From a virus: a stretch of DNA of 64,000 bases. The notes beneath the pieces are model-generated. The model saw nothing but the letters and a program-made list of their open reading frames with translations. It did no database searches and was not told the DNA's origin. Made by a program: the position numbers and the translations under genes. The stretch is from the IMG/VR virus record IMGVR_UViG_3300045988_026316; one strand, 5' to 3'. Shown here one piece after another: positions 19,400 through 64,000 of the stretch. Each line of letters opens with the position of its first letter. Positions within the stretch are counted from its first letter, which is position 1.

Positions 19400-19626
19400 C
19401 GAATTCCATAAGTTTTTTAATTGATGTTTTTTAATTATTGTTTATTATCGTAACTCATAGGGTAACGGTTCGTGAGAATAGTTACTCATTTTATGGGCCT
19501 AACTGGTTTTGATTGTATGAGGAAGTAAATCCGTTAACTGCGCATTAAACATCAACTGGCGATTATAATATCGTAGATTACACTCACATAGCGTAAGTGC
19601 TAATCAGGTTCGACTACCAAAGTGTC

Positions 19627-19673
19627 ATGGGCGAGTAATAGGACTGTATGGGGTTCGATCCCCCACGCCCAAC
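19627..19673 (+). ncRNA. acceptor/T-arm minihelix TLE4
   Basis: Acceptor ATGGGCG/CGCCCAA pairs at 6 of 7 positions. The T arm is TGGGG-TTCGATC-CCCCA, with only a 15-nt connector. It ends 16 nt before ATG 19689. Confidence 0.4.
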
Positions 19674-19688
19674 TAAAACAGAATCAAT

Positions 19689-32659: not shown

Positions 32660-32690
32660 TAACCAACTTGTTAACCTTTGAGTATAAGAG

Positions 32691-39167: not shown

Positions 39168-39291
39168 TAAAGAGTCAGACGAACTGAAAAAGCAATTCGA
39201 GATTGCATTTAAAAACCATGATCCTAAGCTTGCGTTAGAAATAATACGTAGGCATAAGGGTTTGAGACATCGATCCAATGGAAAAGACTAA
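39160..39291 (+). CDS. small hypothetical protein (43 aa)
   Basis: The frame runs from ATG 39160 to TAA 39289-39291 and overlaps both neighbours. It is below the track cut-off. Confidence 0.3.
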   Translation: MSNKESDELKKQFEIAFKNHDPKLALEIIRRHKGLRHRSNGKD

Positions 39292-40258: not shown

Positions 40259-40713
40259 GTCAATTGTTAAAATTTGCTGTATCTAATCTAAATACGAATC
40301 TGACTTATTCTGATGTTAGTCCACAAGCAGGCTTTGTTAAAGCCAGTTTTGACGATATCGATAGGCCGTTCTTAGATAATCACTTTTTTCTAATGTATGA
40401 TTGGAGTGTTAAGGATAAGCAAGTAGCTGCTACAGAATATAAACTACGATCGTTTGATAATTTGTATAATGTACGTACAATGTTTGTCAATAAAAAGCCT
40501 TATGTTGTATATGCATTTACATTGCCTGTGAATCTAAAGCGTATGAAGAGTTGTTCGTTTATAGATACGAAGACTAAGAAAAACGCATTAGACTTTTGGT
40601 GGAATTACGATTTCAACTTTAGTTCGGACATACTGAACAATAAGTTGTATACACCATATGTGTATGATCCTATTCCTGCACAAGATTATAGGCCAGACGA
40701 CGAGTCTATGTAA
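40255..40713 (+). CDS. hypothetical protein
   Basis: Track ORF, the last gene of the forward block. Confidence 0.55.
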   Translation: MSQLLKFAVSNLNTNLTYSDVSPQAGFVKASFDDIDRPFLDNHFFLMYDWSVKDKQVAATEYKLRSFDNLYNVRTMFVNKKPYVVYAFTLPVNLKRMKSCSFIDTKTKKNALDFWWNYDFNFSSDILNNKLYTPYVYDPIPAQDYRPDDESM

Positions 40714-40760
40714 CAAAAAAAGGAGATGTTCAGATATACTGAACGTCTCCTTTTATTTTT
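40714..40760. terminator. bidirectional terminator between convergent blocks
   Basis: An A-run precedes the 12-bp stem GGAGATGTTCAG/CTGAACGTCTCC, and a T-run follows it. Confidence 0.7.
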
Positions 40761-40821
40761 TATATTACATATTACATTATTTGTCGTGAGGTTAAACAGA
40801 TAACAACATTACAGATAGTCA

Positions 40822-43800
40822 TCAGAAGTCGTCTGTAAAGCCTTCGTTACCGAAATCATCCGTAAATTCATCATCAGAAACCTTGGATTGATTATTCTCA
40901 ACCCATTGTGTCTTTTTAGGAACGATGAAGTTATTAGGCGATTGTTGTAAATAGAAGTTTGTGGTGGATTTAATACCTTCTACATGTAATCCTTTAATGA
41001 GTGCATCTGCAGAAGTATTTTGGAATATTTTAAAAATATCCTTAGTGAATCTATTAAAACCTTTATATCCACCTTGTTTGACCTCCTCATCTGATCTATC
41101 GTTGATGATATCCATTGGAATATCCATCCATCTATTCAAATTTTCAATATACGATTTTGCAACAGACGGTGTACTAAGTATATCCATAACAACGCCTGGT
41201 GAATACGCAGAAGCTCGCTCTTGAAACAACTTTAACGTAAATGCAAGCATGTGCCAACGAGCTAGATTCTTAGTTGCCTAATCCATATTACTTGTGTCTA
41301 CGTCAATTATAGGTTTTCCATTAAATGGAAGTAAGTCGATAACCCATTCAGGATCTTTATCAGGATCATCTCCATCATGACCATATGTAAACGGAACAAC
41401 AAATCCTAACAACGCTACAACAATACCAGCCAATATAGTCATATCAGCAATCGTTCTACGAACAGCATATCGTTGATTGTCTGTATATTCAAGATTCATA
41501 CCAGATTGTTCAGACTTCTTTTTCCATCCAATAGCTTGACTTAACCAAGTTCTACGTAACCACTTCTGACAGCCACGTATAAAGTCTTTAAACACAGCCC
41601 CATCAAACTATCCTGTTGATAGATTTTCGTAACCCATTTGATCTCCAACATGTCCGTATTCACTAGACCAGCTTATGTTTTCATTCTTATTGTTGAATTT
41701 AACATAATCAATACCGTTGTTTCCAAACATGTCCCAATATCGATTTACGAAGAATCCACGCATCAATAAGAAGAATGAACCCCATATGTTCTAAGATAAG
41801 AATGCTTTTTCAGACTGATGAACAACTCCATTATATACGGATGTGCGATCATGTAATAGTTTAGCCATTCTGTTCTTAAGATCTTCTGTGACGTATTGTT
41901 CATACTCTTTTTTAACAGAGAAGTTACCATCTTTGTCAAACTCATAAGCATCCCACAGTGTTATTTCTGATCTTTTCCAAACACGTTTACCAGCTTTACG
42001 ACCAAGCTTCATATTATTCAGAATATTACGCTCCATATCAATGATTTGATTACGAGACATAAACTTCTTCTCACCAGTTGTTAGATCTTCAACAAGCTTA
42101 AAATGTCTATAAAAAGCAATCAGCGTTGATGTGTTAATCATATAATCAGCTAACGAATATCCAGCCATTCTTCCAAAGAACATGTGTGCAAGTTTATTTA
42201 GCTTACTACGATCTGTTTGTTTAAATATACCATGTATATCTTTATCACCAGCCTGATTATATCGCATAGCTGCTTCGAGCTTGTTATGAGCTTCTCTAGC
42301 TCCTATGTTGAAAAACGATTGCAGCGAATATATCATTGCATGTGTCCATCCGTATATGAAATCTGAAACGGTCATATATTTACCACCAATAGCGTCAACA
42401 AATGAGCTTATCCATGCATCAGCATAACCGACAGTCATTACCGTGATATTGTTACCCAAAAGAGCAACTGTTGCCAAAGAACGTATTGTTTTAGCACGTT
42501 GTTGAATGGTTTTATCTGACTAAGCATCACGTTTGCTTTTAGTTCTAATCTTAGCAGATGTCTCTTGACCAAATACACGAGAATCAAGTATGTTCTTAAG
42601 TTTCTGAGCTTGCTTACCTTGATCTGTACGTAACTATTGGTTACCACCAGGTTCTGTTGTTTCAAGGGCTCTTTGTAAAAGTTCCCACGATGCAACATGC
42701 TTAGATTTGTTGTTAAAGTTAGCAGCCATTTGATAATACATAATAACAGATCCTAATACATCTGTTGTTATCAAAGATGGATCTTCTAATCGTTGTACCC
42801 AACGAACTGGTAGGTTTGTAATAGGAGTACCATCTGGTCTACGAGGAATATCTAAGTTACTAGTTGCATCTGCATGTTGTTCAGAATATTTACCGCTAAA
42901 TGCATCAACACCCATGTATTTAATAGTTTTCCACATATTACCATTAAACATGTTACGATACAACATTTGCATCTTGTCGCCAGTTATTTGTGGTAATAAT
43001 TCTGATCGCTCTGAAGCATGTTGAGGTATATATGAATTAGCCTCATCCATAGTGCTTTTCAATGCGTTTAAGAATTGCATGTATTTACTATTCTTAGCCA
43101 ACTTATCATATTTATCATTATGATAAATATCCTCATGTGGTTGTACGGGATGATTATCGTTTGAATCAAAACCTTTGTGATTTACAAAGTCTGATGCTTC
43201 ATCAAGTTCTTGATAATCACTTATTGGAACTCTTTCAATCAGTTTATACGTCTTACCACCCTCAGATATTGTATCAAGTTTTGGTGCTAAATATGAAAAC
43301 GCACTTAACTATACAGTTCTACCACTTTCGTCGACATACGTAAATAAATCTGCAAACTGTTGATACATTGCAGGATTAGTTGCACCAACTTTATTATACA
43401 CTTGCGATAGATAGTTGAAATACGCAGTACGACTACCATCTGTTGTAACACACTGAATCATATCAGCAAATGTCTTGAAGGGAATTTTAGGTTTTGTTTT
43501 AGAAATCTTACCTTGTTCAATAAGCTCACGTTTAACCTTAGCAATCTCCTAGTCGATTCTCTTAAGCTCCCTCCACATAGATGTGTCAGTTGATAATCCA
43601 GTACCAGCTTTATCTAAGTTAGGTTGATAGAACCCGAGTTTATATTTCATAAGATTTATAAGCTCTTTCTTACGCTTATTTAAAGCGTCTAGTCTTGGAT
43701 CTTTATACTTACGACCTAACTGTGATAAAAGATCATAAAAGTCATCGGTAAGTTGTGTAGAAGTATTATCATTTATGAACCTATTACGTTCGTTAGGATC

Positions 43801-46800
43801 TGTTATTTCTGATAAACGTTTATTATAAACATCATAGTTGATTTTAAACTTAACATGATTTTTTATAAATGCGTACCAATCAGAAAGTTCATCAGCTATA
43901 CGTAATGCATCACCTTCTTTTGCTCGTACATTTGTTATTCCGTCTGAATCAACCCATGATTCATAGTGTGAACTAAGAGCATTCTTCTATCTTCGTAATA
44001 CTTCAAGCTACCTCTTCTCTTGAGGAGACAATAAGTTTGTGTTGATAAATCCATCCTTATCACGTATATTTTTGGTTATAAGATTTATATTACGATTTAT
44101 CTGATTCAGAGCAATAAGTGTGGATCTTGACAAATAACGTCTACGCTGTTTATAATAATCAACAGTATATCGTCTATTCGAATGTGTATCCAACCAATCA
44201 TCTAACTCATCGTAATATTGATTATAAACAGACTTATCTGCAAGTTCGTCATCATCATGAAACTAGACATTACCTTCATCGTCGAATGTTATAGCATGAG
44301 CTCCGTATTTATCAACGTTTGAGTATTTCTCATTTAACTATGCAATGATTTCATCACGATCTTTATAGAACTATCCGTAGTTAATAGGTCGTATAAAGTA
44401 TCCAGTTGGAGCACCTTTTTTATCAAGTTCCATGAACTATTTTTGAAAGTTCAATATACTTAATTGAGAGCCTATAGGTCGTATCTCGTTATACATTCTA
44501 ACGAGTTTGTTGCCAACACTTAATGTTTGACGATGAGTTTCAAGATCTGCATTTTTAATAGCATCATCGATCATACGTATAAGTGAAGACCTACTACGAG
44601 AAGCCATACCTATCCAAAATTCACCAGAATTTAGTTGTCCATACATATATGAACCCTCTAAAAACTCATAAGCTCTTTGTCTAAAAGCTGCTTTATCTTT
44701 AAGATCTAATGTATTTACAGTCTGATCTATATAATATTTAGCATATGGATGAAGCAGATGTGTTTTATATGTATCATATAATGTGTTTAACGCTACATTT
44801 AATTGTTGACAATATGCAGCAAGGTCAACTCTACCATCTGGGTTTAAACTATACCAATATTTGTTATACTGAGAAACAGCCGATGTTGGAGATGAAAATA
44901 GTTGATTTATATATGAGAATAATAGCTGATAATGACCTAACAAATCTCGTTCTAGAGATATCAACATATCTGGGTTCCACTCAGAAGGATTCTTATGAAC
45001 AATAGATTGTATATATTGATATACATGTGCGATATCGCTATCAGCATTACGTAACGAATCAAATAGTGCATCATACAAATCTTCAACCTTGTCACCATCA
45101 TATTGTTCAAATCGTTCAATCTGGTTCTTAAGTCTAACTATTAATTTCTCATTACGATTCTTTTTAGCTTGAGAAGCTTTTAAACGACTTGTTGTACTAG
45201 AATGTAGTTTGTGCAATATATCACGATCTTTTTCATTTAACAACAGAGATGATGAATAATCACCAACAGCTCTATCGTATATAATCTGTACATTCTAATC
45301 GTGATGGAGTTCTGCATTCCACATTTGTGCAGCACGTATAGCGTTAATAACTTCTGCTTTTTGTTGATCAGTAATAGTCTTAACACCAAAAACGCTCTTA
45401 GCTAATTTGGTAAGATTATCCCAGAAGCTAGCTATATAATCAAGTATAGACTTGTTGTTTATACGATCGTTGATGTTTTGATCAGTGACGGCATTTACTA
45501 AAGCTCTTTCAAGATATTCAGACGTCCTAGAACCAGTGTCATTGAATATATCTAAGCCTTTTTGAATAAGATCAGAATTCCAAAATAAACGAATATAATC
45601 ACGAGCAATTGCTTTATCAACAGCTACTATATCACATTCAATGAAAGCTTTATATAAAGCTGTTGTTACATTGTTATAATCACTAACACCAGCTACTTCA
45701 TGATATAGCTCGGAATATTTAGAACGATATTTCTACCATGTATCCTCGTTTAGTTGATTTATAGTATATTCTAAAAAATCATCTGTTTTACGATGTCTTG
45801 TTGCAACGTAGATACCATCGACATACTATAAGTTGTAACGATTAGCCAATAACTATTGTACGGACTTAAGAGAATCTTTCATACGATGACTATCATACTC
45901 GACAATCTTAGCAGCTCTTGTTTGATTATCCCAACCTGTTATAGATTTATTTATCTTACTACTAACACTTACGAAAGCATCTTCTTGAGACTTTAGCCAT
46001 CTATCTTTTTCGGATTTAACCTAATCAAATACATCAGATATACTCTTTAAAAACAGTTGGTTGCTTAATGAAAAACGTTGTTCAAAATCAGAAATTGTTT
46101 TAAGCTCAACAAACTACACATCATCTGATAATATCAGTTCTGTGAGTCTTTTAAAACCAATACCTTCAGCCAAGTTTTCAGCTGTGATTTCATATTTCTG
46201 TATGATAGCATTAAACTTAGGAACGCGCTTTAGATACCCGACAATACCTTTAAACAAATCTAAAACTTTATCTCCGAAATTATATTTAGCTTTAGATTTC
46301 TTTTTATCTGAAAAGCGATGTTTAAACTCATCAAATACGTATCTACTCAACGCCTGAGTAACCAACTCTTCATCTTGGTGTTCTTTATACAAAGCGTTTA
46401 TTTCAAGATTCAATTCTTTAAAATTATCCTTTGCAAACGATAAGAGTCTTTTGAATAATTCAGGATTATCCTGCTTAATATTGTATATAAGAACGTGCAA
46501 CATTTCTTCAGCTAGAATCTAACCGTTAAACCTACCAGCACGCAAGTATATTGTATTACCAGCAATGAACGAATTAGCAGATCTTGCTTCAATACCAGTA
46601 CCTTTTCCAACAGACCAATCTGATAACTTATTCCATGTTTCTTCGCCAGCAACAATTATTTTAAACCTGTTTCCAAATACGTCCTATAGCTTTTGTTTAA
46701 AAGCTCTTAGCATATCGTCTGGATTCCCAGGCTTGAATAAGTCACGGGATATTATATCCTTGCGATCTACTGTCAAAGGCTTTTTAGACTAGCTATATGC

Positions 46801-47517
46801 TTGTATAATAGTATAACCACCTTGGAAAAACCATTCATTACCATGTCTTATATATTGACGTGTTGGGTTAATTCCACGATTATTCAAAAGTTGTCTGGCT
46901 TCCTTAACAGCTCTATATGTATGACCAGTTTGTGTTTTGTTTTCCTCAAACCAGTTGATCATTGATTGTACATCAAGACTGTATCGTAAACCACCCTGTA
47001 ACGGACTTATTGTACCGTCTCTGTTGATAGATCTTATGTTATACTGATCTGCAACGTTGACAACAACGTTGTACGAGTCATCATCAACTATAGATAGTGA
47101 TTTATCTAATGTAGATACGTAACATGGATATACGGAAGAACTTGTATCTGATAACGATATTGCCTTATTTGTAAAGGCTGTAGATGGTTCGTTAGACTCA
47201 TAAAACAAAACCCTCGGTTCTCCGTTAGAATCAACAGATGTACTTTTATAATCAAGACCGGTGAGCCAATCTCCAAACCAATCTTTAAAATATTGTGTGT
47301 ATGTTACAGACTTAGCTTTTATAGCCTATGATCGATCTCCATATAACGATTGGAGATTTGAAAACAAAGTAGAGTCGGCTCCGTTAGGAGCCTTATCTAC
47401 CATGTATCCATTATTAAGTGACCATACAGCATATGCACCTACTTCACCTAAAGTAGACACAAGCTCATTAAACTCTTTAGCTACGTCTGGATTACTTAAA
47501 TTAGGACAAAAATACAT
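40822..47517 (-). CDS. giant virion (polyvalent/ejected-type) protein, ~2230 codons, 23 in-frame TAG
   Basis: Twelve track ORFs from 47326..47517 down to 40822..41250 are all in one frame, separated only by TAG. The start is ATG 47517 and the true stop is TGA 40824..40822, next to the terminator. The FKDWFGDW motif is shared with the upstream giant gene. Confidence 0.75.
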
Positions 47518-47518
47518 A

Positions 47519-50500
47519 TTAATTACCTTTACAATGTTTCATAATATCATCGTTAAACAACGATTGTTGACGAGAATCATCATACTTAACATCAATAGAT
47601 TTGATTATAGGAATTGCAACGTCGTCATATGACTTTTTCTAACAACGCTTCTAAAGCTCAAAACCTATATAGTGTGCGACAAGTCCTCTAGCGTCATCAT
47701 AATTCATATAATCTGCAAGCATTAGTAAAATACTATTTGGCACAGTACCAAAGCTTAAAAGATTAAATAATGCTTCTCGGTCATATGAATACAGTATTCG
47801 TGATATCTTTTCACGTACTACTTTATCAGAAACCTCTAAATAGTTATCAGCATTAAAAATATTAGCAGCTATATTTATCGCATCAATGAGCGATACTCCA
47901 GTTATGAACGTTTCTCCTGTTATAACAGGTGTTATATATTGTTCTTCATTTGGAGAAATAGCTTTTATTTTATCTATAGCGCGCTAGACATCATCAGATA
48001 GTTCGATATCATTATCATGTTCAACAAAACCTGTTATGTGTAGTTTATTCCATAATGGTAAATGCGCATCTGATTCGTTATACGCAACTTCAGCGTTACT
48101 TGTTATGAAATCCCTCAGCGGCATATGATTAAAGTCTTTTAATGTCAGAGTTTCAATGTCTGCATAAGACCAATCAGAGAATGTTTGCTTAAGGCTCTAC
48201 CAGAACTTAAGAATCCAATCCTTAAGCTTGGATATTATATCAGAAGATCCTTGCTTAGCTTCAATCTCTGAAATAAGTTTAGCACCGCCTTCACCAACAA
48301 GCCTTGCATGAACCTCAGAAGCAATCATAAACTCACGCTGTGCATCAGACATATTAGACCACTTCTTACCATAGAACTCACTATTAGCTATTTCATTCCA
48401 AAGCTTACCACCATTGAATTGTTTCATTAACTCAACACCACGTATCCACAAAGATGGGTTTTTCAGAGCCACAACTCTATCCCAAATGTGCGTATATTCA
48501 TGTATAGGATGTTCTGGCTTAATCTTATTTTTATCAAGATGTATAATACCAGCGTCATCAACATATCCATAGACAACACCTTTTGAATCTTTAAAGAAGT
48601 GAATGTTGTTATTAGTTCTTGAGAAAGTTGTATTTTCTCCACCAGCTGATTTAATTTGATTAGGAGATATGAAACTATAAGAAATACCACCTCCTTCTGC
48701 TTTATTTTCATATTTTGTGCCATCGTATCCTAAAGAAAGCATTAACTTTCTTAATTCAGAATTAGATATTCCTCTAAGAGACGAATATCTCTCTCTAGAA
48801 ATAATGCCTTGTTTATATAACTCTGACAACATATAACTTGCAGTTTCATGTACAAAATCATCTGTATACAGTGGGTTTCTTGCGTTGAGGAATAAAGCAA
48901 GTTGATTACCTTTAATCGTATTAGCAGTTTCCTGTGTTCCTACATGGCCAAAAGGTTCTGACATACCTGGAAGAATCCTTGACTCGTGATCCATGTCAAA
49001 TACGCTAAACTTAAAAGGAGTATTGTGGTACACTACCAACGGTTCACCATTCTCATCAATTACTTTCGATGCATTCTTAGGATCATTCTACCAATCACCA
49101 AACCAATCTTTAAACTCTCTAGTTCTTACTTGAGCATATAGACGTTCTGGTAAATTAGATGGTTTACCATTAGGAGCTAACAGTCTACCTTTAGAATCTC
49201 TTGGAGCTTCATCTAAGATAGTCTACAATCTCTGTTCATAATCATCTGTTTCAGTAGAAATAGTATTCGGTCGTTCTATAGCAAACTGATAATCTTCATT
49301 CCTTTCAATATCATTCTTGTCGATACCGTATACAGTAAAACCACTATCTTTAAGGTGTTGAACAAGTTGTTCTGTTACTGATTTTTCAGAGCTATCAGTG
49401 CTAGTAGGTGTACTTGTTTGAGGTTGAGTAGTACTCTGGGATTTACGTAACTCGTCACGAACCTCCATTAATAATCTTGGGAATTCAGTCTTCCATTTAG
49501 ATTCATCTTGGTTATGCGTGAGTGTAGCATTACCAGTGTCGAGAAGCCTTTGAGCTGCTTGAGGATTTTGTTCAAAAGATTCTTTAAGCAGCTGTTTCAT
49601 GACATTATAAGAATTAGCATCCCATTTAGTAACATCCAATTCTTTTATCTTATGCCCAAGATTCCTCAATTTTGATCCAGATGTTGTGTTCATTATATCA
49701 TTAAGGGTGGTACTATTAACACCTTGTTTTGCAAACAATGCTCCTTTAATATAATGAAACGCCTGTTCTACAGATTGGAATGTCTTCTGAGTACTATCTT
49801 CGAATGTATGAACAAACGGTCTTATTGCAAAGTTACTTAATTCAGCATTTTCTTCAGATTTAAAGTATATATTGATAGGTTTATAGTTTGACTAAGTCTG
49901 TTGCTGAGTCTTATTAGCAGTACTTGGTTGATTACCAGTATTGATAGGTTGTGCTTGATCATCATCAGTAATAGCTGCTGCTACACCACCAGTTTGCTCT
50001 GTTCGTAGATCATTCAATATTGCAGTATACTCATCTCCGAAATTCTTTTTTATTGCAGGTAGTTGATTTATAAAATCTGCTGATTCTACAAAGGCTCGTA
50101 ATGCACCTTGGTTTACAACATACTCTGTACTAGATGGAGTTGAATCATTACGACCATATTCTGTAACCATGAATCCTCCAGATACTTTAGTACCCTTAGG
50201 CTGTACGAGCACATATACAGGATACATAATACCACTATCGTGTCTTGCAAATCCATATAGTTGATATACATTATATTGACGCTGTGAATCATAGTGGTTA
50301 TACGAACGTGGTATCTTTATGAACTTTGGTGAGCTTTCAACTGCAATACTAGGTTCATACATACCCTCATCATTCTTTTTAAGAGCTGCTAATATTGTAG
50401 GATAAGCTGATAACGTTTGCTTATTACCATTAACAATATTCATCTTAGCGACACCTATAAAGTTAGAAGACCTCTTACCATTAGCATCTTTTGAATAGAA

Positions 50501-53500: not shown

Positions 53501-56500
53501 GTTATTTATGATTTGACATTAGTCGTTGAACCTTCTTCTATAAACGTATACTATAGAAGCTTGGCTGCTGATTATCCATGTAATATGGACTTCCCAGCAA
53601 TTAAAGAAATTTAATGACTCCAATATTTTAAAGTCAGAACCAGTAATCTTTGTAAACTCTTCTGGTAGAATAACAGTATCGTTAACAACGGGAATTACAT
53701 CGACACATCTTAATGCATGGATTGAAGACTGTGCCTGCGTAGGAATACGATATGCTAATATATTTGCTTTAGCCTCTTCTCCGATTATACCGTTGTTAAT
53801 AAGCCACTAACGAGCCTCTTCAAAAGATAATTGACGTTTTTCTAGTTTTGTTTTATATATGGTGTTGCCATCCTTATCAACCTTAATATTACCGTCTTTA
53901 TCCTTAAGAGGTATTTTTGCTCCATCCTTTGTTAACTCAAACGTTCGTTTTGTTTGTATATCAAAATCTCCAAGAAGCTTCTTAAAGTAGTCTATTGATA
54001 ATACGCAGTCCATAGAACCCTCTTTGTTTATCATCTACAGACGCTTACCGTTGTATAAAGTTACATTATTGTCTCCAACTATACCGCCATCACTACGTTC
54101 AAAAAGCTTAGATCCCTACATTCCCCATACAGATCTTTGAATAAACGCAGCACCAGGAGTTTTCGTATCAATAACTTCTCCATTGATCTTAGCAATAAGT
54201 TTACTCTCTAAGAAGTTAGAAGACTACACAGCATCTACAGGCATTGATAAACGATAACCAGATTTCTCGTCACCTTCAACCTGAAGTGATGATAATAAGT
54301 TTATATTTGGATCATCACTCTTGATCATATCAAGAACAGTTTCAATAAACTTCTTCTAATCTATTACAACCCTTGATAGATTACCATCATCAATAACTTT
54401 TCCGTCTCCATCTATAATCTGTCCGTCTTCATTGGTTTTGAAGAATTGTTTCATTACATTCTACATACCAATGTCTGACAACCTGTTCATAGAATTCATG
54501 ATTGTATCTAAGAGATCTTGTCCTTTTATCTTAGTTCCATCACGTAATACATAATAGTTATTGACATTCAAGTTACTCATTACAATTTTAGTAGCTTGAG
54601 TACCGATGTTCATGTATTTTTTCTCATTCGGATCAGTATTCAACTGCTTACGTAAATACTTAAAACGTTGTTCGTATGAGTTGAATTTAAATGTATCTAA
54701 GAACAATGGCTTTTCATCTCCTTCGACACTGGAGTAATCATCCCATTTAATAGGCTGAGATCCTTGCGAACCAACTTTAATAGCAGAGTTAATCTTTAGT
54801 TGATCAACACCTTGTTTTTTCATTGCATGGAATATGTTGGCTGTACGACCATATGCAATACTTTCAAAAATCGGGAACAATGCATACTTATCGTAATACG
54901 TAATCATTATTCCAGTTTTAGGATCTCTACGACGTCCAAATGCAGTATATTTCTGAGTACCGATGACTGTTGTAACAATTTTGTTATACGCATTCAATTT
55001 AGTACGAACAGTATATATATTACCACTACGTAAAATCTTAAATGCTTCTTCAATATCACTGCTCCAAGAACCAACCATTCTCAGCAAAGCTTCGCACATT
55101 TCATCAGTTATGTACGCACCACCATCAGCAACATCTATACCATCGAGTTTTTCATCCTTAGACAACCTATAACTATCTATAACAGATTTAGCCTTCTTTT
55201 TTATAACAGCAATAATACCTTTGTGCTTTGATTCTAGAAGTTTTTCGATCTCTTCATCACTCATGCGTTCAAGCTGGCTGTCAACTTCATTACGAGCTTT
55301 TTGTTCAAGATTATATTTGCGCCTACTAGCTTGTATATCAGTCTCATCTTTATATTTTTTGAAACCCTCCAACTCTTTTTCAATATACTCATCACATAAC
55401 ATTGAATAAGCAGTCTGTCTAAGCTGACCAGTATATACAAGAGGTCTCATATATTCAACCTGGGGAGACTCAATCATTTCATTATCAACCTCTGCTGATA
55501 CATAAACACCTTTCTGATAACGATCTGGTAACCCAACAAGACCTTCGAAGTTATTTGTTCCAGTGGAAACCATACCACCAAGACGTTTAAGCTCATCGAC
55601 AGTTCTATCAATCAAGTTACCATCATCATCGTATTTCCACTTATAGAAAGCAGGATTTCCAGCAAACAATCGCTCAACCTCATGTCCAGATATCAAAGCT
55701 TTGTTAGAAAGATCGTTGATATAAGCAACTATTGCTTGGTTAAGTATCTTATCACGTTGTACCTGATCTTTTTCTTGTCCCTTCTTGATATTATATTTAG
55801 CACATATAGCACTATAAATACCTTCAATGGCACTATTGTTTAAACCTATATTTTTAATAACATAGTTCTTCTTGTTATCAAGTCCGATGACATCGATAAG
55901 GCCTAAATCTGCAAGATTCTGTATCTCATTTCTGGTATTATGATCAAGATTTCTAGCGATTAGTCTACGTTGTTCAGAAATAGGTTTACTAAAGAAGTGC
56001 TCTTCAGCTGTTTTAATATTATCTTTATATGTATGGCCATCCTTTTTATCATTAAATGACACAAATACCTCATCGCCATTATTATCAAGCTCCCACACAC
56101 CAAGTAGTGATGAGAATCTAGCACCTTGTTCTTTGGTATAATAGTTTGCAACAGCTGTAGATTTAGTGCCGTCTTCATTCATCTAATCAAGAGCTTTTTC
56201 AGCATCTTTAACAGATTGATATTCAGAATAAGCATAGCTCATAAACAGATCTATAACATCTTCTTGTTGCATGATGTTTCCATCAATCATACCTATACTT
56301 TCAGCAATTTCAGGTACAGATAATATTGTTCCGTTTGGAGCATACATCTTGAGATAATCAATTCCAGGAAGTTTTATTCCACTAACGAATGTCCAAGATT
56401 TTTTATCAGACAATGTTGGCATTATAACACCACCTGACTCAAGTATACAAAGTTTTGATATACAGTCTTCAGTATGACTTATGTCAAAATAATCCGAACC

Positions 56501-59500
56501 AATATCATCTTTATTATCCGTTCTAAAACCAATAAAGTTGTGTAATCCAATACGAAGATTCGGGTTGTTTGATAACTGGTCCAATACGTATGATCCGATG
56601 AAATGTTTTCCTCCAAAAGCATCATCCTCAAGCTTTCTATATATGAATGGATCACGACCATCTGTTAACTCTACGAAATCAGAGTTTCGCATGTTTAGAT
56701 CATGCACAACATCAGACATATAGTTATTATCAGACATCAGATAGAATTTGTTCTTACCCGTGCCTAACACTGTCAACTGGTCTGAATTATGTCTATAATT
56801 ATAAACCCACGTTGCCAGATTTTTAGTAAATGCAAATCTGTCATATATAGTCTCCAACATAACCTTGCCAGATCCCCTTAACGAATACGCCATGTTGTCA
56901 TCAACATTAAGCTTTCCGTTTTTACTTATGTCACGTAAGAATTGTAAGAATGACGTCGGTGAGTCTTCGATATTTGTAGAAGACAACATCTAGTTCAGTG
57001 CTTTGTAATTAACAGAACCGTATTTATTAAACAATATCCAATCAAATACAGGCCTTGTTATATTGATTCCAACAGCATTTAAACCACTTACAAGTCTATC
57101 TAACGCCATATCGAAATCATCCTTACGTCCAGGGCTATCCAGATATTTAATTTCATATACAGGCTTTCCGGCTTCTTTACTCTTCTTAGCATTGTACTGA
57201 CGTACAGGGAATAAGTAAATCTCTCCTTTAGGTCTTCCTGTATGAGGCCAAGATGCTCTCCAGGCAACCCATTGTTTTAAACCAACAATGTTTGCAGCCT
57301 AACCGTTCTTAAGCGTAACCTGTTTGTTAGAGTCAATCATATCAGCAATACTAGTAAACATCGTACTAGCATTCCTGTTTCTAGGATTAAGAACACGACG
57401 TCCATACTGGTCTATAGATACTAAATCAGTACCTCCATTTGCTAACTAAGCACTCCATTGTAATGAATATTCACGAGCAGAATACTCTGTTCCTGAAGGA
57501 GTTAATGTCAATTTATAAAGACCGAACGGAGCTTCTGACTTAGCTAATTCTTTATTGTATTGAGAACGTACAATATCAAAATTATATTTATTCGATCTGA
57601 TGTTTGATACTAGCTGTACAAACAATGCTTCTGCGTCTGCGTCACCTTTATCAACCTTCTACTTAAGGGCCTTTAATTTTGTGTAAGCAACGTAAAATAA
57701 TCCATTGGACATGCTTGCATTACGCAACGTATCCAATAATTGCTGTACGTTTTCACAATCATGACATAGGTTAAGTATCATGTTGTACGCAATATTCATA
57801 GGTACATATTGCGGTAGTCCATACTTGTTAAGCTTATTTATAACTTTATATTGAACTAAACCGTCTTTATATACCAATTTACCCTTTTCAGTAAGTGGTT
57901 TTAGCTCACAATCAGCTATTGTTGAAAAGAAGAACTTAACACGAGATGATGATTTATCAAATCTACTGAATTCAAAACTTTGTCTTGTATGTTCTCCAAT
58001 ATCATTTCCAACAGAAGATCCTGCATCAGATGCGTCTCTTGAATCACGTTCAATACGTTCATGAAAATCGGTTGAAATACTTGAAATACGTGATGCCATA
58101 TCTCTTCTTAACTCAACAGCATCAAATTTTTCAAGAATCTCTCCCATACCAAGCTGAGCTGGAGTTTTATATTCACCATGTCCGAGTATATCTAATCCAG
58201 ACTTATATAGACTTTCAACACCTTTTTCGAATGTTTCTTTATTGATATGTTTTCCAATATTTGCAATATTCGAACCATCGTCTTTAACATCGAATCCGTG
58301 CATGATACAGAACTTTGCAGTCTCCATTAGATTGTCAAACATATCATCACTAATGATATTTGAAAACTCAATACCGTGGTTTTTATAATACAAACCGCCA
58401 AATAGATCATTAAATCTCTATACAGACTTCTTGTCAGGTTCTATTCCAGCATATTTACCTCGTATTATAGCTGCATACAAATTATTAAGATTTCTATCAC
58501 TTCTTTGACTAAAGCTTAATATGAAATCTCTTATATTGTTAATAGCACCTTTTATCCGAGTTTTAATACGACCATCACCTTCTTTTTGCTCAACATACCA
58601 TTTAGAATAGTTCATGAACCTATCTGCAAGAAGCTCAGCAACTTCTCTTATAGCATTCTTACGAATAGCATCATCTTTGCTATGGATATCCAAATTGTTA
58701 CGTTTTGCATAGTACTCATATAAGTCATCACGTATTGCTGCAGGAACACATAATTCAAATGCAAAGTGGAACGCCTCGTGAAAATCAACTCTATCTGGAG
58801 CGTATTCGCTAAGTACAATGGCAGATGATTTACAAATACCCAACACAGACGGGTCACGCATTGCATTAGATATAAGGTTCTTTCTGAATTCGATCTTACC
58901 TTCAAATTGCTTACCAAGTATCGTTGTTATACGACGTTGTGCTTTTGCTTTACTTATATGAGTTTTACTAGGCTCTTTCTGCTTATAAAAAACAACACTT
59001 GATTCATCAGTATTATCTATTTGAGATTCGCTAAGTCCTTCATCAGAATCATTATCAGGCATTTGTTCAGCCCAATCTTGATTCGTAGTATAATCATCAG
59101 GATTTATACCAGGATCTGGTTTAGAGTATCCTTCCGGTTTAACTTCAGGGTCTTCTTGAACTTGAACATCTGGTTGTATAGGGCTGTTTGCACCAGTGTT
59201 AGAGGGTGCCTAGTTTGGATCTACAGTTGATATATCTGTAATATACATATTAGGTGGTGCAAAACCAGCACAGTCTGTTAAAAATACACCGTGTTTAACA
59301 TACCACCCAAGGCCACTCAATCCACTATAATCATCAACAGCTTTAAAATCAGACATATCAAATGTCAATGTTTCAGTAACCTTGAACTATTGCTAATCTG
59401 GATGTTGTATAAACCAATCTCTAATTGCTTTTATAGGAAGTGTATTGTCTTTATTAGAACCAAGTCTAGCTAACATGAAACTATGTTGCTCAGGTATGGT

Positions 59501-62500
59501 TAATGTTTTCATCACACTGCGGAAATTTGTTTTTCCAGCATCTGTGTTCAAATCAATCTCACCAGCATATCCAAGTTGATTGTTAGCGGCTAGATCTTGA
59601 CGCATTCGTATGCGTATCACACCAGGTCTTCCAGGAATTAACTCAATTGCTTTTAATCCGACAAGGTTGTCTTGACTTGCTGCTATTGGCATCAACAATG
59701 ATGCAAGTGCTCTATTAGATACTCCATTTGTTTTACCATTGAGTATATCTGTATTGCTCAATACACTGATCAAGAAGTCAATATCATCATCCGCAAATGA
59801 TTTCTTTTGAACAGTAACTGGAATTACAGCAGGCTGCTTATTACCTTCATCACGTGCAATTCTTTTTAAATAAACAAGGGTACCTCGCTCAGGAGCGTGA
59901 TTTGGATTGTTATATCTAAATATTGTTCGTTGTTCACGATCTCCAACAAGTGTGTTGATATTCTCACCATTAGCGAATCCAAAATCGTTTGATGCATTTG
60001 ACATCTCTATTTTATATAGATTTGTACCAGCAAGAAGCTGTGCATCTGGATCTGTCAGTGGTCTTAACACATCTTCTTTAACAACAATACGACCATTTGT
60101 ACGAGCCATATTAGCTATTATTTTCACACCGGGCTGTGCATCTTCAATACTAACAACACGGTTGTACAGATTCTATCCGTTCTGGCTTAGTGTACGTGGT
60201 TTACCTTTAACAAACGCTTGATACAGATTAAGCGGTATGTTGTTATAAGTCTTACCACGGTACGTGATATGTGCAAATAAACTTGGATTTGTATGTCTGG
60301 CACTTTGTGCACCAGCATGTCGTTCAACACTACTTATTTCAACAACAGCATGTGTTATAAAATCAGGAGCATTAAGTAGTTGTGCAAGCTCTTTATTTTG
60401 ATTTTTATAGAAGAACTCGTAATCCAATGATGGAGACGGGTTTGTTTTAAGATCACCTTTGTTTGTAGCAACTCTATATTCTCCAGGAGTATATTGAGGC
60501 TACTCCGGTTTAGGTTGTGCAGTTTGAGGTGTACGATCTTGTACAGGCTACGTTGGCGTATTAAGTATCTTATATATATCAGCATTATTTACTTGGTCAA
60601 ACGGAGTCATTTTGTTTTTGAGACCGTTGTTGATTATATCTGGCCACTGTCTCGCACCGTCATATGCTGATTTCAAATAAGGTACTACATCCTGTCCAAG
60701 TTCATTAACGAGATGTTTTACAAAATCGTTGAACGAATATATACCACGATCAATTATGCCAACAGCATATTTTGCCATCAAGGTTAATAATCTCGGATCT
60801 ACTCCAGAATTTAACTGTCCGGTCTTACCTTTAAGTATATCAAGAATTTCACTACGAAGTTTGCTCATCTCTTCGTCAGAAACTAATCCGAACTAACCTT
60901 CGTTCTAATTAGCATCAACACCAGGACCTTGTTGCTGTGATGGTAGTATTTTAACTTCACCGTCATGCATCTCGCCTATAGACGATTTTGTTCTAACAAT
61001 AGCTGTTGACTCTACAAATTGCCCGTTCTCAGTTTTGCTTATATAAGATCTTACACCAAGTATCGTTATATTAAGTCTTGTGCATTTATCAACAAACTCT
61101 TGATCGAGAGAATATTCTGACGGTAATTCAAGTGTTGCAACACCTCCAATGTATTTACCGTCTTTTGCATTTTTTGCAACAAACTCTGTGGATTGTACAC
61201 CAGCTTTCTCCTCAGTACCGTTGTTTACAAATCCAGTATAATATACACCTTTTTTACCTTCTTTTCTTACAGTAGTACCTTGTACGAATAACTTTTCATT
61301 AGCCGCTTGAGAATCACTAGGATCCTGTTCTCCAGTCAAAGAACCTTCTCTATCAATATTAGCAATGTCTTGTATGTATTGTTGTGAGTTGATATAATTA
61401 TCGTAAGCAGTAGCTGTTTGTGCATACTCGGCTTCAAGATTAGATATGCTGTTACGTACATCATTAAGCATGCTGTAATACTTAACAGCCTTATCAATTC
61501 TAGATTTTAAGTTCTTAGCCTATTCAAGGGCGTTTACAGTAAGTGATTGTTCGTCTATTAACTGCGACTCTTCATTAAATCGATTTATATCATTAACAAG
61601 TTTATCGAGAGCTTTGATGTATTTATCAAGAGATTTAAGCCTTGGATCTGAAATATAATCGTATGTATCTGCAAAACCATCATACGTACTTAGTTCTGAT
61701 AAATATTGATATAGCGTATTATACTGGGTATCGATCTCTAATTTAAGCTGTTGATATTGCTGCCAAGCCTCATTAACAGTGTCAGGTTGCGTTGTATATA
61801 GTCGTTGCATTTCAGTGCTTATAGGCAGCATTAAACGCAACGGAGCACCGTTTACAAAGTTACTAACGCTCAAGTTGTATATGTTATAACCATCATTAGT
61901 TTCATCCCATCCATATTTAACAACATATGGTAAAATTTCAAGAGACTCTACACTTAAACCAAGTTCGGCTTGAATAAGCATCTAATAAACAGTTTGTTGA
62001 TTCGTGTAGTTTTCGAATGGAGATTGTTTTTGTCCATATTTCTGATTTGCTTGATAAAAGAATCCAGAATACTCAGCTATGACAACAATTTCACCATCTA
62101 CAACATCTAATTCAACACCGTATTGATTATTAGCCGCTTTACGAATGCTGTTGAGTACACTGCGTGCAGCATCTGTATTGTTCTTTACATCATCAACTGT
62201 TAACTTATCAAGTTCAGATTTAAAATCTCGTGCAATAGTACTATTTCTACCTCGTGTTTTAGCAAACTAAAGTCTAGATGTTTTAAAATCGATGATATGT
62301 ATTTTACCATCTTGATCGATACCGATCATATCTGTTTCACCAGCGACTCTACCAACTCCAGGAAATTCAGCATGCCACGTATAAGCGTTTGTGTTCAACA
62401 CCCATCCAAGATCCGTAAACTATTTTAGAATACCTGCCAATTCGATAACAAGATCGCGGATTTGTTCATCAGACATCACCTAACTTGCATCAATGTCGTT

Positions 62501-64000
62501 AAGTATAGACTTCACGATGTTAATTGCGTATTTTACATTTTGCTCATACTTATCTTTAGTATCAGAATGCATGGTGATATATTCAAGAGCTTCTACGCCT
62601 TCAAAATGTCCAAACATGAACCTTGAAATCTCATCAACAATGTTTCCTACTACAACACTAGGTCCTGGCGACTTCTGAATAACAATATGTGCAATATCTG
62701 TTATGGCAGCCTACCACTCAGAATTGTTTTCAAGATTATTGAATATAGGATGCTCAGTAATATACGTACGATATACAACAAGGTCGTGTAACATGGATTT
62801 TTTCAGACGTTCATCTTTCAGTTTTTCGTTAATCCATTTAACAACCTCAGCCTTTGTAGTAAGTTTAGATAACTCCTGAACTACGAGTTTACGACTTTGG
62901 ATCAGATCATCACTCTCCTTGTATGCTTCAGGTAAAGTACTATGGACTCTATTGTAACGTAATACAGAACCATCATCTTGTTTTATAAAGTATGACCTGC
63001 TTGTAGTATCATACTTACCATCCATTGCAGATACAACATCGTCTGCATTACGTACACTTAATGGTTGTTTTATTACACGAGCTTCGTCATCTTTTAGTTT
63101 ATTTTCGAGCGCATCGAACGTTTCTTCCTGTGAAGTCTTTGTTTCACTAGAGCTTAGCTGTGTACCACTACCTGCTGGAGTATACTGCTGTTCAGGCTGT
63201 TTCTGAGTAGGCTGTGATTCTGGCTTCTACTGTGGGCTCTGAGCAGGTTGTGATTCTTGACCTTGTCCAGCACCAGCCTGAGATTCTTGTTGTTGTCCCT
63301 CAGTAGGTTTTTGTTTATCATCTGGTTTTTGTTCTCCAGCAGGCTTTTGTTCTCCAGTAGCTTGTTGTTTGCCACCAGTATTGCTTTTATCTTCAGGAGC
63401 TGTTGTGTCAGCTGGCTGTTCCTAACCTTTTTGTAGTTCAGCGTATTTTTTACTATGTTCCTTTTTAGTTCGTGCAAAAGGAGTATCTCCTTCTGGATTA
63501 TAGAATTCATATCCAACATCGACTCCTTCTAACAATGATGCCATACGTTCTGTATACGTATGTCCTGAATTAGAATCCCATTCTCCAAAAATAGGAGTTT
63601 CTTTCACCTCATGTTTATCAGAATAGTCATATAAATAACCATCTTTATCAATAAATGTACCATCTGGGAGTGGGTTTACAGGAACACCGTCTTCGTCAAG
63701 CTTAACTTTAATCTAGTTTCCGTTGCTACCGATAACAGGATTCGGCTTAGATACTATGAGAGGACTCCATCCGTTTTCCTCATCCATCTTTGCTGCAACC
63801 TCTTCGTCAGATTCAAATGCGTCAGATGTAAGTTCATTCCAGAATTCATCATTTGTCTATTGTGTTTTACGAATGTTGTCCATTATCTGAGCACCATTTC
63901 CACCGACAAATTTGATCTTCTTATTATCTTTTTCCTACTTACCAATAAAGTTTGCAACAGCTTCGTTTGCGTTATTAATATTTTGTTCTAATGCAAATCG
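47519..64000 (-). CDS. giant multidomain virion protein with RNA-polymerase catalytic module; 5' partial; >=45 in-frame TAG; intron 52751..53629
   Basis: A single frame runs from the window edge to TAA 47521..47519 when TAG is read as sense. The beta-prime-like segment is YRIPTQAQSSIHAL...GSDF|DIDK. It also carries a PD-(D/E)XK-like motif (about 62276-62341), HEAFH (58783..58769), a NADAR-like region (about 49223-49890) and HEYTH (48502..48488). Confidence 0.75.
52751..53629 (-). mobile_element. group I intron carrying a LAGLIDADG endonuclease ORF
   Basis: The exon ends GACUUU, which pairs with the guide GGAGUC (53621..53616), with U.G at the splice site and an 8-nt loop. The R box GGTTCAACGACTAATG lies at 53532..53517 and the S box AAGATATAGTCT at 52795..52784. 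A GUAA-loop P9 hairpin follows, and the terminal G is at 52751. Confidence 0.8.
52782..53486 (-). CDS. LAGLIDADG homing endonuclease (intron-encoded), 1 in-frame TAG
   Basis: The two motifs are LIAMLIGDGTI and GIAIWYMDDGH. ATG 53486 joins track ORF 52782..53219 across TAG 53357..53355. It ends in TAA. Confidence 0.85.

Follow-up and report, generated by a model that had tools for sequence, protein, structure and literature searches.

A putative intron-split amber-suppressor tRNA gene in a crAss-like phage with TAG-containing giant genes

The DNA stretch analyzed here (the window) comprises 64,000 nucleotides of IMG/VR virus record IMGVR_UViG_3300045988_026316. The recoding that it carries matters mainly for annotation: under the standard code the rightmost third of this DNA breaks up into dozens of spurious ORFs, and the virion RNA polymerase gene goes unrecognised.

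The window makes up approximately two thirds of a genome of ~98–100 kb. Synteny with cr124_1 and cr130_1, together with a gp66-type RNA polymerase in a giant gene, identifies the source as a Crassvirales phage of the Suoliviridae, near Oafivirinae. The order of primase, ATPase and exonuclease genes followed by two convergent giant genes is common to delta-group/Suoliviridae phages and the window. Giant gene A is ~35% identical to the nearest RefSeq record, and no near DNA match to 40000..64000 was found among GenBank phages.

Giant genes interrupted only by TAG

A stop-to-stop scan in which only TAA and TGA served as stops returned three minus-strand open frames, at 53519..64000 (10,482 nt, 31 TAG), 47519..52753 (5,235 nt, 14 TAG) and 40822..47538 (6,717 nt, 23 TAG), none of which contained TAA or TGA. 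In their 7,431 codons, genes A and B, on the minus strand of 40822..64000, thus carried 68 in-frame TAGs but neither TAA nor TGA. The preliminary description of this DNA, made from its letters and ORFs, had claimed two uninterrupted minus-strand frames with 45 and 23 TAGs and no other stop; the scan reproduced both claims (31 + 14 and 23). Across the window, TAA and TGA together account for 3.7–6.4% of the codons in minus-strand frames. At that frequency, the estimated probability that 3,494 consecutive codons include neither is about e^-130, which excludes chance.

Gene A encodes more than 5,200 aa. Its exon 1 (53630..64000, minus strand; 31 in-frame TAGs) ends in ...TGSDF and has its 5' end cut by the window; in relative L008 the frame carries on upstream beyond the point corresponding to the window end. 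Exon 2 (47519..52750, minus strand; 14 in-frame TAGs) ends at TAA and contains a NADAR-like domain in its C-terminal part. Giant gene B (40822..47517, minus strand) encodes 2,231 aa with 23 in-frame TAGs, stops at TGA, and is a homolog of the second Suoliviridae giant gene (cr124_1 gp02, cr130_1 gp80). Its stop had been placed next to a bidirectional terminator, and the convergent blocks are indeed separated by an element that resembles one, a hairpin of 16 bp (40718..40754) with an A-run and a T-run at its sides. Two checks proposed earlier also gave the expected outcome. Greedy ORF selection yielded 57,042 coding nt in 68 ORFs with TAG as sense, whereas the standard code gave 45,099 coding nt spread over 90 ORFs, and Suoliviridae giant proteins aligned by tblastn and blastp across the TAG positions of genes A and B without a break.

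The spliced-core profile of gene A matched the gp66 RNA polymerase of PDB 6VR4 (E = 1.9e-76, 650 positions, TGSDFDIDK aligned), showing that gene A contains a virion-type RNA polymerase whose catalytic core is intact. Group I introns with homing endonucleases occur in conserved protein genes of phages, such as td, nrdB and sunY of T4 and the DNA polymerase gene of SPO1 (I-HmuI). The RNA polymerase gene of the window likewise holds a group I intron at 52751..53629 (minus strand, 879 nt), which splits the catalytic motif as GSDF/DIDK. Rfam RF00028 matched this intron in two pieces, 53636..53511 (E = 3.8e-10, 45.8 bits) and 52797..52765 (E = 5e-4, 25.2 bits), both below the gathering score of 50, with an ORF splitting the match. 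Exactly the intron stretch is absent from relative L007, which represents an intron-less allele, so that a family match, a precise intron-less allele and a homing endonuclease ORF coincide at this site. Because 879 nt is a multiple of 3, both exons lie in one frame, consistent with the frame previously reported to be shared across the LAGLIDADG-containing intron. Like the T4, SPO1 and delta-group crAss introns, the RNA polymerase intron with its LAGLIDADG ORF occupies the most conserved site of its gene. The delta-group introns are located in MCP, PolB and primase genes, and the DFDID-motif site of the virion RNA polymerase gene is absent from the sites listed for that group (PMC7886860). The LAGLIDADG homing endonuclease ORF (52782..53486, minus strand; 234 aa; TAA stop; LAGLIDADG_2 in Pfam, E = 6e-19; phrog_11023) contains one in-frame TAG, and its product would therefore be made only after a code switch. 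A similar endonuclease case has been described in a TGA-recoded phage (Borges et al., 10.1101/2021.08.26.457843).

To assign the TAG codon, the window was compared with three relatives (L007–L009) that are 93–97% identical to it in DNA. At 38 of 51 variable TAG sites the codon exchanged with CAG or CAA, and 11 of these 38 involved CAA, a codon that differs from TAG at two positions; a few sites exchanged with TAT/TAC, GAG or CCG. CAG was also depleted in the giant genes (CAA 226, CAG 91, TAG 68) relative to the TAG-free genes (CAA 163, CAG 176), which fits replacement of CAG by TAG. The exchanges at 38 of 51 sites support the view, already put forward in the preliminary description, that TAG encodes glutamine in the TAG-containing genes.

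The recoding phenomenon is already known, as had been stated for crAss-like phages, because RefSeq relatives show the same recoding. The equivalents of the two giant genes contain 29–74 in-frame TAGs in cr124_1, cr130_1, cr6_1 and cr114_1 (31–74 in cr124_1 and cr130_1) and none in cr118_1 and cr1_1. Late genes of delta crAss-like phages are partly TAG-to-Gln recoded (PMC7886860), and glutamine at TAG was demonstrated by proteomics in two crAss-like phages (PMC9523058). As in these delta-group/Suoliviridae phages, in-frame TAG in the window occurs in late and giant genes, replication genes are TAG-free, and TAG is seldom a stop (PMC7886860; 10.1101/2021.08.26.457843; PMC9523058).

Partition of TAG among the genes

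Three plus-strand genes also contain TAG. Gene C (9415..11520; 701 aa; 12 in-frame TAGs; TAA stop) has an HExxH motif and no family match, and it diverges fast (56–68% at the amino acid level among relatives, for the stretch queried only). Gene D (6555..7121; TGA stop) contains six in-frame TAGs when read from the ATG at 6555, and its TAG positions are kept in three relatives. Gene E (7983..8423; 146 aa; TAA stop) has one conserved in-frame TAG. The TAG counts and stops given earlier for gene C, gene E and the LAGLIDADG ORF were recovered, as were the four TAGs and TGA stop of gene D when its start is taken at 6645.

In contrast, no internal TAG was found in 46 genes comprising 9,376 codons, where 86 would be expected if TAG were as frequent as in the giant genes (P about 5e-38). 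This set includes the DNA polymerase, DnaB helicase, primase, ATPases, nuclease, ThyX, dUTPase, sigma factor and others, in line with the earlier list of polymerase, helicase, primase, thyX, dut and sigma factor. The partition between TAG-containing and TAG-free genes is real. Even as a stop, TAG is rare in the TAG-free genes (3 of 45), and two of the three TAG stops are directly followed by TAA or TGA. The DNA polymerase gene (30755..32662, plus strand; phrog_1252, E = 8e-131) illustrates how a standard-code gene is buffered against read-through, as it ends in the tandem stop TAG-TAA. In some genes that stop at TAG, such as 17652..18173, the next stop lies further downstream.

Genes D, E and C (6555..11520) head the plus-strand block and alternate with the TAG-free thyX gene, an arrangement that differs from the published delta-group recoding, and the minus-strand block is essentially TAG-free over its initial ~6 kb in the window. 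The claim that recoding is restricted to a subset of genes stood, with the refinement that this subset does not simply consist of virion genes, coincide with one strand block or follow a clean early/late split between blocks. In relatives, two further large late-block genes (688 and 828 aa), putatively terminase- and portal-like, also need TAG as sense.

The split tRNA(CUA) gene and its insert

ARAGORN called no CUA tRNA on the raw window, and a collinear relative, scanned over about 31 of the ~34 kb that lie beyond it with a 2.5-kb gap left out, showed no other tRNA. However, a predicted amber-suppressor tRNA(CUA) gene lies on the minus strand at 3151..4201, apparently cut by a group I intron. 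Its 5' exon (4167..4201) extends from the acceptor stem to anticodon positions C34 and U35, and its 3' exon (3151..3187) from A36 to the 3' end. This gene is located outside the coordinates covered by the preliminary description and was missed there. Uninterrupted tRNA(cta) genes occupy the equivalent locus in relatives L021 and L020/L025, and the two halves in the window, 979 nt apart, are identical to the uninterrupted L021 allele. When 4166..3188 was removed in silico, ARAGORN called tRNA(cta). Acceptor pair 6:67 is U-A, U.G or C-G among intron-bearing alleles, a variation that points to selection on the split tRNA gene.

The window also encodes a tRNA-Gln(UUG). The suppressor is not notably similar to it, and its glutamine identity therefore rests on the codon substitutions. 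In the "code change module" of other recoded phages, a suppressor tRNA, with or without an aminoacyl-tRNA synthetase or release factor, is encoded in standard code upstream of the recoded genes (10.1101/2021.08.26.457843). The window resembles these phages in that the suppressor gene lies in a TAG-free stretch opening the long late-gene strand block, and differs from them in that the gene is intron-split and the ORFs tested yielded neither a release factor nor a tRNA synthetase.

The insert (3188..4166, minus strand; 979 nt) interrupts the anticodon as CU/A, between U35 and A36, with the boundaries ...CUCU/UUU... and ...UAUG/AAC; the last nucleotide is U in the 5' exon and G in the insert. A conserved ribozyme-like core (P2–P8) was located at about 3188..3327 on the minus strand. 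Its helices P2, P3, P4, P6, P7 (pseudoknot) and P8 comprise 39 pairs with 98.5% of cells paired, compared with 27–48% when the partners were slid. Compensatory changes were found in 18 core pairs, and none of 500 shuffles reached the observed values. A helix closing the ORF loop is present as well, with sequences that differ between lineages. An invariant guide, UUGGA at 3335..3331, is complementary to the ligated anticodon loop UCUAA and pairs with U33-C34-U35, forming U.G at the splice site, as well as with A36-A37, giving a proposed P1 of 3 base pairs plus 2 for P10. This structural model suggests that the insert is a self-splicing group I intron.

An HNH endonuclease ORF in the P1 loop (3240..4142, minus strand; 300 aa; Pfam HNH) contains no TAG and fills 92% of the insert. 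Because only 24 + 52 nt lie outside the ORF, the core overlaps its last ~35 codons, which cover P2–P6, and the TGA stop falls just upstream of the P7 5' strand. The overlap of core and ORF, the 3-bp P1 and the lack of a P9 hairpin in the subgroup of the window are unusual for group I introns. Rfam RF00028 had no match at E ≤ 1 to the insert in the window and 11 related loci. ORF-less introns sharing the P4–P6 core motif (L251, L273) are called group I by Rfam, and L023 carries an unrelated ORF-less group I intron at the same tRNA site.

Group I introns in bacterial anticodon loops are known from cyanobacterial tRNA-Leu(UAA) and tRNA-fMet, Azoarcus tRNA-Ile and Agrobacterium tRNA-Arg. The window intron shares with them the anticodon-loop site, the U at the end of the 5' exon, the terminal G, a guide that pairs with loop nucleotides and a compact core. 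Unlike them, it resides in a phage amber-suppressor tRNA gene, holds a 300-aa HNH ORF in the P1 loop that overlaps P2–P6, has a P1 of 3 bp with P9 absent in its subgroup, and escapes Rfam.

The same arrangement was found in at least 20 further IMG/VR viral-contig stretches with differing tRNA sequences, and all 23 of 23 homologs of the HNH ORF lie within tRNA(CUA) anticodons. A GenBank Bohxovirus record carries it too, with no tRNA annotated there. Genomes that have the insert are 3–7% diverged and keep 42–50 of the 68 giant-gene TAG positions.

A candidate decoder and its alternatives

The codon pattern and its partition among genes, the substitutions that point to glutamine, the splitting of the tRNA gene and a conserved ribozyme-like structure in its insert were all shown here. 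On these grounds we consider, with a probability of roughly 0.8, that TAG has two readings in this genome and that the decoder is the intron-split phage tRNA(CUA), charged with glutamine after self-splicing. The replication, nucleotide-metabolism and many small genes that avoid TAG would be translatable by the standard machinery of the host, and genes A, B, C, D and E and the LAGLIDADG ORF would require TAG to be read as glutamine by the tRNA encoded at 3151..4201. The mature suppressor would form only after self-excision of the intron and would be charged by a host enzyme, most likely glutaminyl-tRNA synthetase. Early genes would then be expressed under the standard code and late genes once the suppressor accumulates. 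Splicing, charging and timing are all inferred, and counting against the last, the TAG-containing and TAG-free genes do not separate cleanly into early and late blocks, with genes D, E and C beside thyX in the plus block.

The strongest competitor, although an unlikely one, is that the insert killed the tRNA gene and that read-through depends on a host suppressor, a co-infecting phage, a near-cognate tRNA-Gln or a tRNA in the unscanned 2.5 kb. The absence of an Rfam group I match, an ORF that occupies nearly the whole insert and the presence of tRNA-Gln(UUG) would all agree with this, and host-encoded or undetected suppressors have been considered possible (PMC7886860). However, the boundaries of the insert are exact and intron-like, a covarying group I core lies at its 3' end, and the guide fits the anticodon loop of tRNA(CUA). 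Both halves of the tRNA are intact, with a compensatory acceptor-stem change among insert-bearing alleles, and insert-bearing genomes retain most of their TAG positions despite their divergence. The element also splits differing tRNA(cta) genes in at least 20 other stretches, which would be unexpected for dead genes.

It is considerably less probable that code 15 permanently governs the whole genome, as it might in a host that itself reads TAG as sense, with the TAG-free genes reflecting codon bias. The rarity of TAG stops even in TAG-free genes, two of the three being backed by TAA or TGA, would fit such a code. Yet the complete lack of TAG in 9,376 codons is too sharp for bias, read-through would extend some TAG-terminated genes, such as 17652..18173, by a longer stretch, the suppressor is encoded by the phage itself, and the predicted hosts of such phages are standard-code Bacteroidota (10.1101/2021.08.26.457843).

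We regard it as very improbable that TAG specifies pyrrolysine, tyrosine, tryptophan or leucine, or is skipped. Distant homologs show many polar residues opposite TAG, a few sites swap with TAT/TAC, GAG or CCG, and ARAGORN labels any CUA tRNA "tRNA-Pyl", but Gln codons, the two-step CAA among them, account for most of the swaps, genes that use TAG are depleted in CAG, and proteomics of related crAss-like phages found glutamine (PMC9523058). Skipping would not conserve codon positions. Family searches detected no genes for pyrrolysine synthesis or charging (pylS/pylBCD) among the ORFs scanned, small ORFs being covered in part, and pyrrolysine decoding was rejected on this result and the Gln-like substitution spectrum. 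That the frames are decayed or fragmented genes or an assembly artefact, as the dozens of standard-code ORFs might suggest, is already refuted by the TAG, TAA and TGA counts, with TAG the sole interrupter and no frameshift in 7,431 codons, and is further opposed by TAG positions kept in three independent assemblies, homology across the TAGs to the complete giant proteins of standard-code cr118_1 and cr1_1, and the intact RNA polymerase catalytic core.

A TAG suppressor tRNA was detected in only about 40% of TAG-recoded phages in a survey (10.1101/2021.08.26.457843), and for Suoliviridae-like phages the literature has continued up to 2026 to appeal to suppressors of the host or to "undetectable" tRNAs. 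Intron-split suppressors are invisible to ARAGORN, tRNAscan-type tools and Rfam, and would therefore account for part of the suppressor-less cases in Suoliviridae and other gut phages; splitting by an intron may be the reason why some recoded phages seem to lack a suppressor tRNA. The broader proposal, that the code switch depends on a self-splicing mobile intron specialised for the amber anticodon loop and that this explains part of the missing suppressors, has in our view a slightly better than even chance of being correct; that the splicing rate also helps time the switch is less likely. Recoded phages can be re-screened by looking for tRNA halves flanking HNH ORFs. If the proposal is true, an RNA-processing step would be placed between infection and the code switch.

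TAG-open frames and the genes that use them

A six-frame scan of the window was performed under different stop sets. With only TAA and TGA as stops, long minus-strand frames were open at 53519..64000 (10,482 nt, 31 TAG), 47519..52753 (5,235 nt, 14 TAG), and 40822..47538 (6,717 nt, 23 TAG), the first two belonging to giant gene A and the third to giant gene B. Reading TGA or TAA as sense instead gave no comparable gain. Because TAA and TGA together make up 3.7–6.4% of codons across the minus-strand frames, frames of 1,700–3,500 codons lacking both are not due to chance. Re-calling genes by greedy ORF selection with TAG as sense, as the preliminary description had proposed, covered 57,042 nt in 68 ORFs compared with 45,099 nt in 90 ORFs under the standard code. 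The TAG counts of that description (45, 23, 12, 4, 1, and 1) and its true stops were all reproduced by the frame scans.

Internal TAG was absent from 46 genes (9,376 codons), against 86 expected at the rate of the giant genes (P about 5e-38), which demonstrates at the level of sequence that the genes form two sets written in two codes. By family match, the TAG-free set includes DNA polymerase (30755..32659), a DnaB-type helicase (33241..34170), an AAA_24 ATPase (35511..36251), primase (37030..38031), an AAA ATPase (38412..39167), a PD-(D/E)XK nuclease (39278..40258), a sigma factor (21105..21659), ThyX (7193..7999), and dUTPase (2578..3135). Stops in this set were TAA (31), TGA (11), and TAG (3). 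Of the TAG stops, two stand in tandem, as TAG-TAA after the DNA polymerase gene (32657..32662 +) and as TAG-TGA (35522..35527 +) after the HNH gene at 34880..35524; such tandem stops cap read-through at one residue once a suppressor is active.

The smaller plus-strand genes D, E, and C (6555..11520) contain 6, 1, and 12 TAG, respectively. Three relatives keep the TAG positions of D and E, along with roughly half of the sites in C, and the intervening thyX stays TAG-free. In the collinear relative contig IMGVR_UViG_3300045988_015832 (015832), the minus-strand block extends past window position 1. The first genes there are TAG-free; TAG use starts ~3 kb beyond that position and peaks in two large ORFs, one of 688 aa (7 TAG) and one of 828 aa (12 TAG), which read as putative terminase- and portal-like proteins. 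The positions of D, E, and C, the state of thyX, and the pattern in 015832 therefore define a TAG subset that is conserved and not limited to one strand. The proposed subset is thus well defined; it is not simply a set of virion genes. Homologous giant genes carry 29–74 TAG in phages cr124_1, cr130_1, cr6_1, and cr114_1 and none in cr118_1 and cr1_1. The recoding of a gene subset was correctly recognized in the preliminary description, and its interpretation is supported; TAG recoding itself is an already known phenomenon in the crAss-like phage family, and the same pattern has been described for the delta group (Yutin et al. 2021, PMC7886860).

Two TAG-containing ORFs deserve separate mention. 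The 163-codon ORF at 1894..2385 (-), downstream of the suppressor tRNA, contains one in-frame TAG (codon 69), and the stretch around it is otherwise free of TAG; its counterpart of equal length at the matching place in 015832 has none. Gene C (9415..11520 +, 12 TAG), which carries an HExxH motif, has diverged far more rapidly than the neighboring sequence. Its 178-aa C-terminal stretch shows 56–68% identity in relatives whose gene A is 97–98% identical, and the gene had no match in GenBank phages. Gene C may encode a host-interaction or receptor-binding protein.

Gene identities and the intron of the RNA polymerase gene

DNA matches in GenBank phages were few and all belonged to Crassvirales, with no near match to the giant-gene region. 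A tblastn search with a 2,800-aa segment of spliced gene A retrieved 33 phage records, nearly all of them uncultured crAss-like phages, and the best match was cr124_1 (35% identity). The window shares with cr124_1 and cr130_1 (Suoliviridae, Oafivirinae) a layout of primase, ATPase, exonuclease, and two convergent giant genes. With a seven-sequence profile, the core of gene A matched the virion RNA polymerase gp66 of phage phi14:2 (PDB 6VR4; E = 1.9e-76), and the metal-binding motif TGSDFDIDK was aligned. This structure was reached only with the profile; phmmer of gene A against PDB gave a NADAR domain alone. The NADAR-like domain (PDB 8BAU, E = 0.002) is fused to the RNA polymerase on its downstream side, toward the C terminus of giant protein A, within 47519..52750 (-) at residues ~1830–1935 of a 2,600-aa query. 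Gene A exceeds the window, its frame extending at least 2 kb further upstream in the relative L008. In PHROGs and Pfam, genes B, C, and D had no match, and gene E had a single weak PHROG match to a family of unknown function. A G+C island at 12000..14000 (51.5% compared with 38% for the window) holds long overlapping ORFs on both strands, of which 12409..13395 (-) and 12658..13347 (+) had no Pfam or PHROG match.

Gene A is interrupted by an intron. The Rfam group I model matched 53636..53511 (E = 3.8e-10) and 52797..52765 (E = 5e-4), with a LAGLIDADG endonuclease ORF (52782..53486 -, one in-frame TAG) between them. The junctions, with exon 1 ending GGT TCT GAC TTT, the intron ending ATG, and exon 2 beginning GAT ATT GAT AAA, place the intron at 53629..52751 (879 nt), where it divides G-S-D-F from D-I-D-K inside the catalytic DFDID motif. 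The close relative L007 (IMG/VR 3300045988_015620) is collinear and lacks exactly 52751..53629. This intron-less allele independently confirms the splice junction.

The residue encoded by TAG

Homologs at 25–35% identity presented mixed polar residues opposite TAG and gave no decision. The residue was settled as Gln by closer relatives, the IMG/VR contigs L007–L009, which share 93–97% DNA identity with the window over most of the giant-gene region. Across genes A and B, 19 TAG sites of the window differ in one or more of these relatives, with CAG or CAA as the other codon at 15. At 32 further sites TAG occurs in a relative and not in the window, which has CAG or CAA at 23. Altogether, TAG alternates with a Gln codon at 38 of the 51 variable sites; 11 of these involve CAA, which is two changes away from TAG. 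These substitutions between aligned genomes demonstrate the assignment. Codon usage is the pattern expected from replacement of CAG by TAG, with CAA 226, CAG 91, and TAG 68 in giant genes A and B and CAA 163, CAG 176, and TAG 0 in the TAG-free genes. TAG has also been identified as Gln by proteomics in two other crAss-like phages (PMC9523058).

The split suppressor tRNA gene

ARAGORN and Rfam detected seven ordinary tRNAs in the window and none with a CUA anticodon in its raw sequence. Relatives (L021, and L020 and L025, both from a single contig) carry a tRNA(cta) flanked by tRNA-Val(UAC) on one side and an odd tRNA-like sequence on the other. Alignment with L021 revealed 979 additional bases in the window at a point where L021 runs on without interruption, in the middle of the tRNA. 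The 5' half (4201..4167 -, TGCCCTATGGTGTAGCGATTAGCACAAGAGGCTCT) and the 3' half (3187..3151 -, AACCCTCCTGGTCCGGGTTTGACTCCTGGTAGGGCTA) are identical to L021 and are divided between anticodon nucleotides U35 and A36; in-silico removal of 4166..3188 yielded a tRNA(cta) accepted by ARAGORN. The restored suppressor is no closer to phage tRNA-Gln than to other phage tRNAs. At the same CU|A site, L023 (IMGVR_UViG_3300029377_000002) carries an unrelated, ORF-less insert of 186 nt (7744..7929) recognized by Rfam as group I (E = 8.6e-5). Close relatives thus show this locus in three forms: intron-less, with a small intron, or with the HNH intron.

Other tRNA-like sequences were considered as well. A 92-nt sequence at 4467..4558 (-), adjoining the split gene, scored 29.4 bits in Rfam against a threshold of 29 and is kept in relatives, where ARAGORN labels it 'tRNA-??? 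(ggaa)'. It was not convincing as a suppressor or tRNA, having two acceptor-stem mismatches and ~35 extra nucleotides in the anticodon region, and it folded no better than shuffles (z = -1.07). ARAGORN found no further tRNA in ~34 kb beyond the window, walked on 015832 except for a 2.5-kb gap (44257..46785). ARAGORN also called a permuted tmRNA ('tmRNA*') at 19310..19687 (+) with tag peptide GDYNIVDYTHIA, as it did in L016, L017, and L020, and Rfam called none there at gathering score; the call may be spurious or may reflect a tmRNA-like RNA of the phage.

The 979-nt insert had no match to the Rfam group I model, and it is nearly filled by an ORF for a 300-aa HNH endonuclease (3240..4142, no TAG) that leaves only 24 + 52 nt outside. 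Both features would fit an independent HNH gene whose presence had inactivated the tRNA, a reading overturned by a comparison of 23 loci and a covariation test. In IMG/VR, the HNH protein had 23 homologs (54–99% identity), each of them located after ...CTCT in a tRNA-like 5' half, and in-silico excision restores tRNA(cta) at 16 of these loci. Conservation is far higher in the final ~150 nt of the insert than in the ORF, and these nucleotides fold as P2, P3, P4, P6, P7, and P8 with a group I P3/P7 pseudoknot. Among 15 distinct sequences, 98.5% of core cells were paired, compared with 27–48% when partners were slid; 18 of 39 core pairs showed changes on both sides, and none of 500 shuffles matched the observed values. 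The joining regions (AAUUGACUCGGAA; GUGA-CAGACUGAAC; GGAUGCAACAGUC) are similar to the group I consensus. The last nucleotide of the 5' exon is a U, and that of the insert is a G.

No guide sequence was present in the 24-nt leader; it was found after the ORF instead. The sequence UUGGA (3335..3331), which is invariant and lies shortly before P2, complements UCUAA of the ligated anticodon loop; the pairing includes U35.G at the splice site and two base pairs to the 3' exon (P10). Base pairing also joins the 5' leader to a stretch after most of the ORF, through different sequences in different lineages (-10 to -15 kcal/mol compared with -4.5 to -7 for shuffles), which places the HNH ORF in the P1 loop. 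Rfam assigns ORF-less introns that share this P4-P6 motif to group I (L251 491..676; L273 949..1146). Among insert-bearing alleles, acceptor pair 6:67 varies as U-A (window), U.G (L185), and C-G (L186), indicating that the split gene is still under selection as a tRNA. The weak points of the intron reading are a P1 of only 3 bp, a core overlapping about 35 codons, and a P9 that is present in a more distant subgroup and absent from that of the window. Taken as comparative evidence, these results demonstrate an intron-like element with a conserved predicted ribozyme fold that interrupts the CUA tRNA gene.

The core motif occurred in 89 IMG/VR stretches. Of 81 matches in fetched stretches, 20 resolved as ~1-kb introns in tRNA(cta), and the other 61 gave no tRNA of any anticodon after in-silico splicing. 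At least some of these 61 sit in ORF-less group I introns seen by Rfam. The motif thus extends to introns outside tRNA genes, and the 61 presumably mark introns of other genes. One group (L187 and L189–L194, IMG/VR contigs, e.g., 3300045988_076858) has intron-bearing CUA 'tRNAs' with an aberrant 3' half (…GGGGGAGTGGGGGCAGCACCTACATGGGC…) that ARAGORN refuses even when spliced; these may be unusual or degenerate suppressors. Among GenBank phages, the full element was found only in Bohxovirus sp. 'endotrachealis' (Oafivirinae), whose annotation lists the ORF as a 'hypothetical protein' and has no tRNA there.

The pre-tRNA would self-splice, and the host GlnRS would charge the mature tRNA with Gln; amber suppressors are glutaminylated in E. 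coli, as cited in Borges et al. (10.1101/2021.08.26.457843). Accumulation of the suppressor would then allow TAG read-through, and the giant RNA polymerase protein, gene B, and structural proteins would be produced after the standard-code genes. The HNH ORF could be translated before this switch as it has no TAG, and the LAGLIDADG ORF should be translatable only after it because of its in-frame TAG. A full-text literature search found no description of an intron-split suppressor tRNA in recoded phages, which is not proof of novelty. The split gene combines two known kinds of element, a phage suppressor tRNA and a group I intron in a tRNA anticodon loop, and offers a concrete explanation for some 'missing' suppressors.
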